Source of the DNA: Planctomycetota bacterium
Lineage (GTDB): Bacteria > Planctomycetota > Phycisphaerae > UBA1845
Assembly (NCBI GenBank): GCA_030616775.1
Contig: JAUWWQ010000046.1
Location: 1-32,000 of the forward strand
Length of the DNA: 32,000 bases
Reading direction: 5' to 3'
Shown here: positions 13,750 through 15,321 of the stretch, in pieces
Layout of the letters: each line of letters begins with the position of its first letter
How positions within the stretch are numbered: position 1 is the stretch's first letter
Position numbers and translations under genes: made by a program
The notes under the pieces: model-generated
What the model was told of the DNA's origin: nothing
Databases searched by the model: none
Seen by the model: only the letters and a program-made list of their open reading frames with translations

Positions 13750-14049
13750 TTACTCGCAACACGTCGCGTCTGCGGAACAGTCACAGGTCGGCTCGCTGCC
13801 GCGCAACATCCCATTGAGCACTGCGGTCGCGCAGCCTACGCCGGACCGTACGGAAATGGCCTCGGTTATGCAGTTTAGAGCACAAGCCCCACATTCCATG
13901 CACGCGTCTCGGTCGGCAATCCGGGCCTTTTGGCTCTCAATGACCAGTACACCATGCGGACATACTTCCGTGCACACTCCGCAGCCGGTGCATTTTTCAC
14001 TATCCAAGATCAGTGTCACGACATTGGGGAGATAACGTAACCGTGTCAT
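13750..14049 (-). CDS. hgcB: HgcB, mercury-methylation-associated ferredoxin
   Basis: 99 aa; CTGCGVCTEVCP and CMECGACALNC clusters, GVGCA with Cys at residue 73, C-terminal CDCSADATCCE with vicinal cysteines; GGGAGG SD before ATG; immediately downstream of hgcA. Confidence 0.95.
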   Translation of the reverse strand: MTRLRYLPNVVTLILDSEKCTGCGVCTEVCPHGVLVIESQKARIADRDACMECGACALNCITEAISVRSGVGCATAVLNGMLRGSEPTCDCSADATCCE

Positions 14050-14160
14050 TTGTGCCTCCCGGGTTGCAGGCCCTCATGCGCCGGGCGCCGTCGATCGTCT
14101 CTCTCACGTCGCTGCCGTGGGCGTTGCCTGCTCCGCATAACCGCTGTCCGTCGTCGCTGC

Positions 14161-15321
14161 TTAGAAGAACCGCCCGGCCAGCCACAGACCGGTGCCTATC
14201 ACCGCGCAGGCCGCCTGAACGGGCACTGCCACACGCATTTCCCGGCGAACGCCGGACAGCGACGTGTAGGTTGAGGCCCCGGTAAAGTTCATAGCCACGT
14301 AACTCACCACCGCAGGTATAAGCAGCAGCCAAGCGCCTGTGCTTGCCGGATTCTCAAAAGTGCCCGGATGCGCCCACGCAAACGCACTCAAAGACAAAAC
14401 AAGGATCAGCCCGAGCCAGGCCCCTTTTGCGGAAAACGCCCTTCCGGGCAGCCAGGGCAGCAGCACGGGCGTTAGTACGGCACCAACCGCAAACGCAGCA
14501 AGCAACAGTGCTGCGCTTTGCACGCCTTCGGTTCCCGCTCGGTGGAGCGAATAAATCCCCGGACCCAGCCCTGCCAACACGAGAAAACAGGCCGCCAGGA
14601 ATAGCGCGTGTTTCGCCCCTGTAACCAGTTCGAGCGGGATGAGGACCACACGCTCGCGGAAAGGAAACTGCACGCGACGCATCTGCGGTGTCGCCTTCAT
14701 GCCGGCGCTTACAAACGCGGGAATATCCTCCGCACGCACCGGCCCGAAGACCACGCTAAAACCGGATCGTCGTGCCACCTCGTGGGCACTGACACCGGGA
14801 GCGCCCAACTGCGGAACCACAAGCCGTCGATGGGAAACGACCTCGCCCAGGCCCACGACATCCACCCGTTTGGCGATCTCCTCAGTGCCGAAGGTCCCCT
14901 TGCCCGCTGCGCACCAGACGTTGACCCCCTTGGTATCCAGCACCAGGATCCAGGCGTCCAGGCCACCCAGTTGCGAGCGAAGCCGGTCGAAGCTCATCTT
15001 GTAGTTGGCTGACACCAGCACCGGAGACTCTTGTGTTGGAGACCCCGCGGCGTACAACCCCGGCTCCACCCGAAAGCGCATCCGACCGATTCCCCATCGC
15101 ACCTTCCAACAGCCCACACGATCTGCCCTGGTCAAGGTTGTGGATGTTCGGGGAACGTCGCCGACCGGAGTGCCAACCGTCCCCTCAATCCAAGGTTCGA
15201 CGATCGAGGGAGGCTTTCGATCAACTCTCGCAGGACCGCTTGCCTGGCAGCAGGTCGACTCCGGCGGGTCATCTGTCGGTACGTCACAACTAGAGGACGT
15301 TGTCGCCCGCAGCTCGTCCAC
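14161..15321 (-). CDS. hgcA: HgcA, corrinoid protein required for mercury methylation
   Basis: 386 aa; RFRVEPGLYAAGSP...PVLVSANYKMSFDRLR...DAWILVLDTKGVNVWCAAGKGTFGTEEIAKRV...HRRLVVPQLGAPGVSAHEVARRSGFSVVFGPVRAEDIPAF; about five TM helices at the C-terminus. GTG start with AAGGGAG SD. Confidence 0.97.
   Translation of the reverse strand: MDELRATTSSSCDVPTDDPPESTCCQASGPARVDRKPPSIVEPWIEGTVGTPVGDVPRTSTTLTRADRVGCWKVRWGIGRMRFRVEPGLYAAGSPTQESPVLVSANYKMSFDRLRSQLGGLDAWILVLDTKGVNVWCAAGKGTFGTEEIAKRVDVVGLGEVVSHRRLVVPQLGAPGVSAHEVARRSGFSVVFGPVRAEDIPAFVSAGMKATPQMRRVQFPFRERVVLIPLELVTGAKHALFLAACFLVLAGLGPGIYSLHRAGTEGVQSAALLLAAFAVGAVLTPVLLPWLPGRAFSAKGAWLGLILVLSLSAFAWAHPGTFENPASTGAWLLLIPAVVSYVAMNFTGASTYTSLSGVRREMRVAVPVQAACAVIGTGLWLAGRFF
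14899..14922 (-). other. hgcA: HgcA cap-helix signature NVWCAAGK
   Basis: Codons for residues 134-141 read NVWCAAGK, an exact match to the published N(V/I)WCA(A/G)GK consensus. Confidence 0.98.

Follow-up and report, generated by a model that had tools for sequence, protein, structure and literature searches.

Methylmercury in food webs originates from microbes that carry hgcAB, and hgcA and hgcB are the two genes that anaerobic microbes need to make this toxic compound. The 32,000-nt stretch of planctomycete DNA analysed here (the window) had been read as carrying a complete hgcAB pair. The locus raises the question whether this pair is intact and likely to confer mercury methylation, and how its position among arsenic-resistance genes bears on its expression and role. 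We consider it probable (roughly 0.85) that the window holds an intact, two-gene, chromosomal hgcAB of an uncultured Phycisphaerales bacterium, which would be active and expressed in response to arsenite, these elements being taken as one joint explanation.

Identification of the hgcAB pair

The sequence-only reading placed the pair at 13750-15321 with the strand left unstated. This is the exact span of two minus-strand open reading frames, and the products of both score above curated equivalog cut-offs. The features are as follows.

14161..15321, minus strand: hgcA, open reading frame of 386 aa (NCBIfam NF040863)
14707..15075, minus strand: corrinoid-binding domain of HgcA, aa 83-205 (Pfam PF03599 CdhD at aa 83-201)
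14899..14922, minus strand: cap-helix motif NVWCAAGK, aa 134-141, Cys137 codon at 14911-14913 (regular expression on the translation)
14167..14643, minus strand: transmembrane domain of HgcA, five helices, aa 227-385 (hydropathy and AlphaFold2)
14050..14160, minus strand: hgcA-hgcB spacer, 111 nt (read from the sequence)
13750..14049, minus strand: hgcB, 99 aa, ferredoxin with two [4Fe-4S] motifs, Cys73 and a Cys-rich tail (NF040864)

Translation of hgcA starts at a GTG (15321) with AAGGGAG 7 nt upstream, and that of hgcB at an ATG (14049) with GGGAGG 5 nt upstream. Because the N-terminal 55 aa of HgcA are kept in homologues, the GTG start was favoured over a database call of 306 aa; the 386-aa call corrects a database start codon that drops 80 conserved residues. 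As had been claimed, hgcB lies directly downstream of hgcA. The same order was found at 80 of 80 relatives' loci, these being the best matches in species-representative genomes, all of them MAGs and none a cultured validated methylator. The 111-nt spacer lies towards the long end of the range in relatives (median 14 nt; 77 loci with a placeable hgcB start). A search for riboswitches (cobalamin or other) and structured leaders gave no Rfam match: none at the gathering thresholds anywhere in the window, and none at E <= 1 over 13600-15700, which covers the region upstream of hgcA and the spacer; no tRNAs were found in the window.

In the profile search proposed with the sequence-only reading, HgcA matched NF040863 (HgcA_corrinoid) with 463.5 bits (cut-off 275, E = 3.5e-139, model positions 1-324 of 325). 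The motif NVWCAAGK was present within the quoted block SANYKMSFDRLRSQLGGLDAWILVLDTKGVNVWCAAGKGTF and conforms to the pattern N[V/I]WC[A/S][A/G/S]GK with its conserved cysteine; across 86 sequences N134, V135, W136, C137, G140 and G142 are invariant. The corrinoid domain aligns with the C-terminal domain of CFeSP large subunits (2h9a, 4c1n, 4djd; E ~1e-10), in which the residue aligned to Cys137 is Thr. A membrane domain of about five helices had also been proposed, and five Kyte-Doolittle hydrophobic segments match five AlphaFold2 helices (227-249, 259-290, 296-317, 325-349 and 355-385). Modelling, also proposed as a check, gave a corrinoid domain and these helices (mean pLDDT 84.8 over the whole model) but is uncertain at the cap region, residues 138-142 having pLDDT <50 and no predicted helix. 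The best Foldseek match to the model was 9a0b_A, a deposited HgcAB model (E = 2e-21, 44% identity); next came large subunits of CFeSP, among them the chains already aligned by sequence. A search for a solved HgcA structure returned CFeSP chains only by sequence, and by fold only the computational model 9a0b.

HgcB scored 121.2 bits against NF040864 (HgcB_ferredoxin; cut-off 99, E = 1.2e-35). Its cysteines lie at residues 20/23/26/30, 50/53/56/60, 73, 89, 91, 97 and 98, and thus include all that had been claimed for it: two 4Fe-4S motifs, Cys73 and a vicinal pair, Cys97-Cys98, which is followed by a terminal Glu. Both cluster motifs have the form CX2CX2CX3C, the first (CTGCGVCTEVC, 20-30) followed by Pro and the second (CMECGACALNC, 50-60) by Ile rather than Pro. 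Cys73 lies within GVGC, about 12 residues past the second motif, with cysteines further towards the C-terminus. Among relatives, 76 of 77 have an equivalent of Cys73 and 50 of 77 a CC in their final 5 residues; the functional weight of Cys73 and of the C-terminal cysteine positions comes from tests in ND132 (PMC7305189). CMECGA (residues 50-55) supplies the C(M/I)ECGA signature on the same contig, 111 nt downstream of hgcA, and together with the listed cap-helix motif this places the pair in the 'high-stringency' class of the community protocol (PMC10087281).

The genes are also well preserved. Of 154 columns that are highly conserved, HgcA differs at 6, each time by a conservative change, and in comparison with a 90%-identical relative (L003) dN/dS was 0.27 in hgcA and 0.14 in hgcB. 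The window pair is orthologous to hgcAB, intact and under purifying selection. L003 (CP070827) and L004 (CP070744), both Phycisphaerales MAGs, are the nearest neighbours of the window HgcA in the tree described below; HgcA is 90% identical to L003 over its full length and 68% identical to L004, and the corresponding AroB values are 86% and 59%, a pattern that fits vertical descent within the Phycisphaerales; these two genes, by their match to L003, are also the basis for assigning the host to that order. In L004 multihaem cytochromes lie downstream of hgcAB and there are no ars genes. An apparently truncated hgcB (74 aa) and arsR in L003 were rejected as genuine, since runs of N interrupt both; these runs leave that locus informative only between ~8436 and 11253 and its wider context unreadable. 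More than 8000 homologues were scored in the protein collection; the window pair clearly belongs to this familiar gene family, without standing out in it.

Arsenic-resistance genes on both sides of hgcAB

On either side of hgcAB lie genes of arsenic resistance, an arsR-arsP-arsE-arsF-arsG operon on one and a divergent arsR-acr3 pair on the other.

10297..10620, plus strand: second arsR, with EMCVCDL, leading the arsP-arsE-arsF-arsG operon (NF033788, 90.6 bits)
10667..11995, plus strand: ArsP_1-family permease (Pfam PF03773, 264.5 bits)
12007..12267, plus strand: arsE-family thioredoxin-like protein (TIGR00412, 98.4 bits against 62; Pfam Thioredoxin_3)
12483..13016, plus strand: arsF-family protein (NF040494, 102.3 bits against 60)
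13025..13705, plus strand: arsG-family DsbD_2 permease (NF040495, 296.5 bits against 200; 226 aa in the database)
15533..15554: candidate ArsR operator, inverted repeat CATATAC-N8-GTATATG (read from the sequence)
15552..15944, plus strand: arsR, divergent from hgcA (Pfam HTH_5; NF033788, 85.3 bits; ELCVCNLC)
15945..17021, plus strand: acr3 arsenite efflux permease (TIGR00832, 467 bits against 282.8)

arsG and hgcB converge, their stop codons 44 nt apart, and 230 bp separate hgcA from the divergent arsR-acr3. The ArsR encoded at 15552-15944 carries Cys33/35/38 in the CXCXXC pattern of an As(III) site and is followed directly by acr3; the As(III) site of E. coli ArsR (Cys32/34/37) has the same three-cysteine pattern. 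In the intergenic region the candidate operator overlaps the -10 boxes of two promoter-like sites, one on each strand (plus, 15507-15535; minus, 15573-15545), both located by scans for a sigma-70 consensus that may not hold for this phylum. The repeat is conserved in L003, and with arms of 7+7 bp it is statistically weak, about 0.15 such repeats being expected by chance in 230 bp by our estimate. A 16-bp palindrome upstream of the second arsR is absent from the hgcA-arsR spacer and occurs only at 9758 and 10275. Two other loci with a divergently placed arsR, L061 and L083, were compared as well, but their spacers are too divergent and AT-rich for a shared operator to be defined.

These features suggest that hgcAB would be expressed in response to arsenite through the divergent three-cysteine ArsR. 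There is a precedent in Pseudodesulfovibrio mercurii ND132, where hgcAB is regulated by ArsR and induced by As, and where methylation rate is not predicted by hgcAB transcript level (10.1101/2022.10.17.512643).

An 800-aa molybdopterin enzyme was also considered as an ArrA or PhsA equivalog. It scored below both cut-offs (201.7 against 1600 bits and 300.5 against 694 bits, respectively) and for that reason was not named an arsenate reductase.

Arsenic linkage among relatives and a possible metalloid role

Genes of ars type occur within <= 8 kb of hgcAB at 25 of the 80 best-matching loci, in several phyla, and one locus (L086) has the same ars gene set as the window, there co-directional with hgcAB. 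Fusions were also found: 16 protein clusters among the relatives join HgcB to ArsD, and one protein (P0100) joins an ArsE-like domain to HgcA. We regard these fusions as the most interesting by-product of the analysis.

Such linkage could mean that hgcAB is primarily a module of the ars island for handling arsenic or another thiol-bound metalloid, with Hg methylation as a side reaction. The placement of the pair between two ars operons, the recurrence of ars neighbours, the co-directional set in L086, both kinds of fusion and the arsenic induction of hgcAB under ArsR in ND132 all point this way. However, the remaining 55 of the 80 best-matching loci have no ars neighbour; ND132 cultures gave no detected methylarsenicals, and in that organism As resistance did not fall significantly when hgcAB was lost (10.1101/2022.10.17.512643). 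Moreover, neighbourhoods and fusions indicate a functional link, not a substrate. We therefore think a primary role in metalloid handling unlikely, and it does not contradict a capacity for Hg methylation. The more specific proposal of a conserved ArsR-controlled arsP-arsE-arsF-arsG/dsbD-like/hgcAB/arsR-acr3 module in this and many other lineages, in which hgcAB would be a structural element and HgcAB would act on a thiol-bound metalloid delivered by thioredoxin-fold proteins of the ArsD/ArsE type, appears quite improbable. If it were true, the HgcB::ArsD and ArsE-like::HgcA fusions would serve as Rosetta-stone evidence and the window as a compact, intact example on which to test it.

A deletion upstream of hgcA

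Between hgcA and the divergent arsR lies the trace of a lost gene.

15334..15490, minus strand: 3' remnant of a DsbD_TM-like gene, ~51 codons and a stop, just upstream of hgcA

Its translation, FAAGYAAPLTVAMLGVSLGRLSRFAG...GFWLLLSL*, corresponds to the C-terminal end of an intact DsbD_TM gene of 238 aa in L003. Relative to L003, which keeps two genes between arsR and hgcA (one for a 110-aa Cys-rich protein and the intact DsbD_TM) where the window has neither, ~985 bp are missing upstream of hgcA. In L032, L033, L035 and L065 an intact DsbD_TM homologue likewise precedes hgcA, at a distance of 16-54 nt. The deletion thus took out the genes that precede hgcA in L003 and could have changed the promoter.

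It might be argued from this loss of ancestral operon leader genes, possibly with their promoter, and from the unusually long hgcA-hgcB spacer, that the pair is intact yet effectively silent or decaying. Several observations speak against this. The promoter-like site and inverted repeat next to arsR are kept, and conserved in L003; hgcA retains its own AAGGGAG ribosome-binding site; disruptive substitutions are absent and dN/dS is low in both genes; and the 111-nt spacer has the identical length in L003. The deletion junction itself is shared by two independent read-set assemblies. Silencing or decay therefore seems very improbable, and an intact pair under arsenite-responsive control remains the preferred reading.

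HgcA compared with its paralogues

Pfam reports only PF03599 (CdhD) for HgcA, and some databases label its homologues 'acetyl-CoA synthase subunit gamma', which might suggest a non-methylating paralogue, either a fused HgcAB-like protein or a Wood-Ljungdahl corrinoid protein of the CdhD/AcsC type. The paralogue models, however, stayed below their cut-offs on the window HgcA: 201 bits against 285 for the fused HgcAB_like model (NF043039) and 71.7 bits against 306 for ACDS gamma (NF003195). In place of a single fused polypeptide there are two ORFs, split by a stop codon and 111 nt. Alignment to the CFeSP large subunit/ACDS gamma (AcsC, CdhE) is limited to the C-terminal 120 residues of that chain (~317-440), with Cys137 in place of Thr, and HgcA has a membrane domain.

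The tree that had been suggested with paralogues as outgroup agrees. In a distance-based neighbour-joining tree, built without bootstrap from 82 HgcA sequences and a CFeSP domain outgroup, the window HgcA fell inside the HgcA clade, grouping with the two Phycisphaerales sequences beside other Planctomycetota, and the outgroup lay at a distance of 0.71 as against <= 0.51 for all HgcA sequences. On the profile scores, a paralogue identity can be regarded as already refuted.

Proposed mechanism and significance

HgcA is a corrinoid protein anchored in the membrane, and its Cys137 (Cys93 in ND132) would be the cobalt ligand. HgcB, a ferredoxin with two clusters, would reduce the cobalt, with Cys73 and the Cys-rich tail serving to handle the metal. 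By analogy with the purified ND132 complex, the one system for which the SAM mechanism and the biochemistry of HgcAB are described (PMC11588087), Co(I) would be methylated by SAM, giving methylcob(III)alamin, and its methyl group would then be transferred to thiol-bound Hg(II). Arsenite would relieve the divergent ArsR, so that hgcAB is turned on together with acr3 inside the arsenic-resistance island.

The sequence supports a strong prediction that the host can methylate Hg. We state this as a prediction rather than a fact since the experimentally validated methylators in the literature examined include no Planctomycetota: most of them belong to the Desulfobacterota, the Firmicutes or the methanogens, and carriers from the Planctomycetota are described as putative (PMC10469668). 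Activity also needs a corrinoid supply, anoxia and expression.

The presence of hgcA in Phycisphaerae has already been published; the window locus is an additional, well-supported carrier from the Phycisphaerales, an order flagged before in anoxic waters. Listing uncultured groups with intact hgcAB should allow better prediction of where methylmercury forms. The main wider value of the locus is its context, an intact hgcAB between two ars operons and beside a classical three-cysteine ArsR, which offers, outside the Desulfovibrionaceae, a clean natural construct in which arsenite may switch on mercury methylation. This context and the HgcB::ArsD fusions of relatives bear on arsenic or thiol-metalloid handling as a possible native role of HgcAB.

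Comparison with known systems

Fused HgcAB-like proteins, such as that of Pyrococcus furiosus, are reported to be non-methylating and are single polypeptides, whereas the window has two ORFs. The CFeSP large subunit (AcsC/CdhD; 2h9a, 2ycl, 4c1n, 4djd) shares with HgcA a homologous Rossmann-like corrinoid domain with a cap-helix region; it differs from the window HgcA in having an N-terminal 4Fe-4S domain, a TIM barrel and Thr at the Cys position, and in being without a membrane domain.

The association of hgcAB with ars genes is already published. The neighbourhoods described by McDaniel et al. 2020 and Gionfriddo et al. 2022/2023 have acr3 and arsR in the flanks, as in the window; the portions of these accounts considered here name acr3, arsC, arsM, arsB and arsR, and in one case arsA and arsD. 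To the genes named in those portions the window flank adds an organoarsenical-type module, arsP-arsE-arsF-arsG.

The closest characterised counterpart, genetically and biochemically, is ND132 (DND132_1056/1057), with the same two-gene order and the same class of cap-helix motif. The two HgcA proteins share the corrinoid domain, the five membrane helices and the cobalt-ligating Cys, which is residue 137 in the window and 93 in ND132 because the window protein has a longer N-terminus. In HgcB the eight cluster cysteines and Cys73 are identically numbered and both tails carry a vicinal Cys pair, the window tail having in addition a CDC (Cys89/91). The window HgcA, ~44% identical to the model 9a0b_A, differs from that of ND132 in coming from a planctomycete host.

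The window encodes a complete HgcA-HgcB pair

The region 13750-15321 is fully occupied by two open reading frames, both on the minus strand:

14161-15321, minus strand: hgcA, 386 aa; GTG start at 15321, with AAGGGAG 7 nt upstream
13750-14049, minus strand: hgcB, 99 aa; ATG start at 14049, with GGGAGG 5 nt upstream

The sequence-only reading had placed hgcB directly downstream of hgcA, and this arrangement was borne out, with the minus strand and a 111-nt spacer as details that it had left unstated. Its description of the proteins likewise agreed with the translated frames. HgcA includes SANYKMSFDRLRSQLGGLDAWILVLDTKGVNVWCAAGKGTF, and the NVWCAAGK block occupies residues 134-141, with the cysteine at 137. 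The expected C-terminal membrane domain of about five helices was recovered both as five hydrophobic segments in the hydropathy profile (~225 to 383) and as helices in an AlphaFold2 model. HgcB contains the two anticipated 4Fe-4S motifs (CTGCGVCTEVC at 20-30 and CMECGACALNC at 50-60), followed by Cys73, Cys89, Cys91 and the predicted vicinal pair Cys97-Cys98.

Homologs of 385-386 aa span 100% of the HgcA query, and full-length HgcA homologs share an N-terminal region consisting of CC near the start and then PWI.G.V.T..G.VPRVSTTL..ADR.G.WK.RWGIGRM. Conservation of this region indicates that GTG 15321 is the true hgcA start. Public calls for the window HgcA (P0001) and its closest relative (P0002) begin at Met81 and yield 306 aa, dropping 80 residues that include the conserved N-terminal region and ~25 family-model positions. 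The database entry P0002 carries the label 'hypothetical protein'.

Pfam returned generic domains only (CdhD at HgcA residues 83-201, Fer4 in HgcB), and NCBIfam equivalog models with curated cut-offs were used to separate HgcA and HgcB from paralog families. In this HMM check, which the earlier reading had proposed, HgcA matched HgcA_corrinoid at 463.5 bits (cut-off 275; model positions 1-324 of 325) and HgcB matched HgcB_ferredoxin at 121.2 bits (cut-off 99), while the paralog models remained below cut-off (HgcAB-like fusion, 201 bits versus 285; ACDS gamma, 71.7 bits versus 306). The window hgcAB falls in the high-stringency class of a community protocol (PMC10087281), which calls for a listed cap-helix motif and for an hgcB with C(M/I)ECGA on the contig that carries hgcA. 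By sequence, solved structures match HgcA only via the C-terminal corrinoid domain of the corrinoid iron-sulfur protein (CFeSP) large subunit (E ~1e-10), in which a threonine aligns with HgcA Cys137. The proposed tree, computed by neighbour-joining with the CFeSP domain as outgroup, located the window protein inside HgcA and the outgroup at a distance. The window pair are almost certainly true HgcAB orthologs.

Predicted structure, intactness and selection

The AlphaFold2 model of HgcA, built from 86 sequences (mean pLDDT 84.8, pTM 0.75), contains a confident N-terminal beta-hairpin at 45-59, a Rossmann-like domain and five long helices (227-249, 259-290, 296-317, 325-349 and 355-385). Internally, confidence is low only in the cap segment 138-142, which leaves the model neutral on the geometry of the cap helix. 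The top Foldseek match in the PDB library was 9a0b_A, the HgcAB model deposited by Cooper et al., which aligned over 337 columns at 44% identity (E = 2e-21); CFeSP chains ranked after it. The deposited 9a0b model represents the protein of Pseudodesulfovibrio mercurii ND132 (PMC7305189).

HgcA deviates at 6 of the 154 columns conserved at ≥85% in 85 relatives, and all six changes are conservative (T/V, F/Y, A/V, F/Y, V/L, Y/F). Against L003, the related locus in the Phycisphaerales MAG CP070827 which has 90% amino acid identity to HgcA at full length, dN/dS was 0.27 for hgcA, with similar values in all three domains, and 0.14 for hgcB over the stretch that can be read, indicating purifying selection on both genes. 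The 74-aa hgcB of L003 was rejected as an assembly artefact, as runs of N interrupt the gene: the 'complete' CP070827 has N runs within arsR and hgcB (L003 ~8330-8435 and ~11254-11360), and its hgcAB lies on a ~2.8 kb fragment with gaps at both ends.

Among the 80 best-matching loci from species-representative genomes, hgcB is immediately downstream of hgcA in every case. For the 77 with a placeable hgcB start, the median spacer is 14 nt, placing the 111 nt of the window in the upper tail; a Cys73 equivalent is present in 76 and CC within the last five residues in 50. What these comparisons show for the window pair is orthology to HgcA and HgcB, presence of every sequence determinant tested, intact genes and purifying selection.

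The host is a Phycisphaerales planctomycete

Two assemblies from independent read sets contain the locus at 100% identity, one over 5.2 kb and the other over 4.7 kb, and a 36-kb NCBI contig carries it too. The closest named HgcA relatives are from Phycisphaerales MAGs: CP070827 (92% over the 306 aa called, 90% at full length) and CP070744 (68%). HgcA is prone to horizontal transfer, and the housekeeping protein AroB (19464-20585) was therefore compared as well; its best named matches were again in CP070827 (86%) and CP070744 (59%), and in other Planctomycetes and Phycisphaerae. In the neighbour-joining tree the window HgcA clusters with the CP070827 and CP070744 sequences, with Pirellulaceae, Planctomycetaceae and Thermoguttaceae adjacent to this Phycisphaerales group. 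Agreement between HgcA relatives, AroB matches and tree placement identifies the host as a planctomycete of the Phycisphaerales, a group within which hgcAB appears to have been passed on vertically. hgcA-carrying Phycisphaerae have been described from the Black Sea.

An anaerobic lifestyle fits the neighbouring genes, including:

7265-9667, minus strand: molybdopterin oxidoreductase of the Phs/Psr/Arr group, Tat signal, 800 aa
6516-7289, minus strand: its FeS subunit

No membrane-anchor gene accompanies these two genes. Assignment of the oxidoreductase as a PhsA or ArrA equivalog was rejected, its scores (300.5 versus 694 and 201.7 versus 1600, respectively) lying below every equivalog cut-off. 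ND132 co-expresses hgcAB with putative genes for As(V)/polysulfide respiration.

Elsewhere in the window, 29001-31000 shows strong positive GC skew (0.32 and 0.18, versus ≤0.12 absolute in the remainder) that falls in the gene for a 657-aa PMT_2/TPR protein (28945-30918), and 31186-31971 (minus strand) encodes a YHS-domain protein matched in five stretches by the 'YHS domain-containing (seleno)protein' model.

Arsenic genes enclose hgcAB

Arsenic genes lie on both sides of hgcAB. Upstream, an arsR diverges from hgcA at a distance of 230 bp; its product contains ELCVCNLC (Cys33/35/38), matching the classical As(III) site with three cysteines, and acr3 (467 bits, cut-off 282.8) directly follows this arsR. 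Downstream, a convergent operon ending 44 nt from hgcB encodes a second ArsR, an ArsP_1 permease, an ArsE-family thioredoxin-like protein, an ArsF-family protein and an ArsG-family DsbD_2 permease. The gene and candidate regulatory features are:

10297-10620: second arsR
15507-15535, plus strand: sigma-70-like site, hgcA-arsR spacer
15573-15545, minus strand: second sigma-70-like site in this spacer, the two facing outwards
15533-15554: inverted repeat CATATAC-N8-GTATATG, overlapping the -10 boxes of both sites
9758-9773 and 10275-10290: 16-bp palindrome (ATGGCAATAGTGCCAT, ATGGTAATATTGCCAT), spacer between the divergent molybdenum oxidoreductase and second arsR
15334-15490, minus strand: dsbD-like remnant

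The inverted repeat is kept in L003, and by our estimate ~0.15 such repeats are expected by chance in the spacer. Because the repeat is short and the sigma-70 scan consensus is not validated for planctomycetes, we infer ArsR control of the window hgcAB mainly from the ND132 precedent, where hgcAB transcription is ArsR-dependent and As-responsive (Gionfriddo et al., 10.1101/2022.10.17.512643). Under such control As(III) would de-repress hgcAB via the divergent ArsR; arsenite-responsive expression in this host is a tentative prediction, somewhat on the doubtful side. One copy of the 16-bp palindrome overlaps a promoter-like -10 box 7 nt before the second arsR start, and two matches were obtained in 0 of 100 shuffles; the palindrome is possibly a shared operator that would place the molybdenum enzyme in an ArsR regulon.

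The remnant, made up of the final 156 nt ahead of the hgcA ribosome-binding site, encodes FAAGYAAPLTVAMLGVSLGRLSRFAG...GFWLLLSL and a stop. It comprises the last ~51 codons of a DsbD_TM-like gene and matches the C-terminal end of the 238-aa product of the intact gene in L003. In L003 a gene for a Cys-rich membrane protein of 110 aa precedes this gene, whose end lies 12 nt from hgcA, and the window is without ~985 bp present in L003. Intact DsbD_TM homologs lie 16-54 nt upstream of hgcA in L032, L033, L035 and L065 (annotated Zixiibacteriota, Eisenbacteria, Phycisphaerales and Bacteroidota), and the related locus L086 likewise has a DsbD_TM-like homolog. The ancestral order was probably dsbD-like-hgcA-hgcB in a single operon, and the window is a deletion derivative in which the promoter region nearest arsR and the ribosome-binding site of hgcA itself survive.

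Arsenic linkage and fusion proteins in relatives

At least one match to the window ars proteins (tblastn queries, E ≤ 1e-5) was found within the available flanks of 25 of the 80 best-matching loci, a raw count and, since many contigs are short, a lower bound. Matches were to Acr3 (14 loci), ArsE (10), ArsG (9), ArsP (8), ArsF (6) and one or other ArsR (12-19), in loci annotated Planctomycetaceae, Bacteroidales, Bacillota, Syntrophorhabdus and others.

Fusions of HgcA or HgcB with ars-type proteins are absent from the window itself and occur in relatives. In L018 (Chloroflexota MAG, 2750-3402) the hgcB frame runs on into an ArsD domain, and a search with this protein recovered 16 clusters (P0257-P0272) of HgcB::ArsD architecture in ENA, JGI and Logan assemblies; they are 232-291 aa long and match at full coverage with 61-90% identity. 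Both the cysteines of HgcB and the MCCSSGVCG site of ArsD are preserved in these fusions. The L086 example (8001-8840) passes both cut-offs (HgcB 99.5 versus 99 bits, ArsD 100.6 versus 90 bits) and directly follows a bona fide hgcA (469 bits); before them on the same strand is arsP-arsE-DGC-arsF-arsG-acr3-arsR ... dsbD-like, and directly after (8856-11095) come genes for an MtrA-like corrinoid/FeS protein and for a CoA-disulfide-reductase-like flavoprotein, the latter with a weaker match of MerA-like type as well (159 bits). An ArsA ATPase is found near another HgcB::ArsD gene. P0100, a 474-aa protein with 12 member sequences from Logan assemblies, joins an ArsE-like Thioredoxin_3 domain to the N-terminus of a full-length HgcA with INVWCAAGK, and is a second Rosetta-stone link of hgcAB to ars-type thioredoxin-fold proteins. 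The existence of both fusions argues for a functional link, and against accident, behind the ars neighbourhood of the window. A stronger proposal, that hgcAB is integral to an ArsR-controlled metalloid-handling module with its native substrate delivered by ArsD/ArsE-type proteins, is unlikely.

Comparison with characterized systems

ND132 HgcA binds cobalamin, with the conserved cysteine giving Co-thiolate ligation, and HgcB contains two [4Fe-4S] clusters; the cofactor receives its methyl group from SAM, and the group then passes to Hg (PMC11588087). Cys73 of HgcB is essential and at least one tail cysteine is required for full activity (PMC7305189). The eight cluster cysteines and Cys73 have the same residue numbers in the ND132 and window proteins. 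By analogy, the HgcAB complex would be made, corrinoid-loaded and active in the host, which we predict is able to methylate Hg(II) under suitable anoxic conditions (probability 0.75-0.8).

The arsenic context has precedents as well: acr3, arsC, arsM and arsR flank hgcAB in McDaniel et al. 2020, Gionfriddo et al. note hgcAB-ars co-localisation in other genomes, and a further study places arsA and arsD near hgcAB. The words 'fusion' and 'fused' are absent from this last study, which names both HgcB and ArsD. The hgcAB-ars genomic context of the window is already discussed in the literature, its taxon already figures among the putative methylators, and the pair is an ordinary case from an extensively described family.
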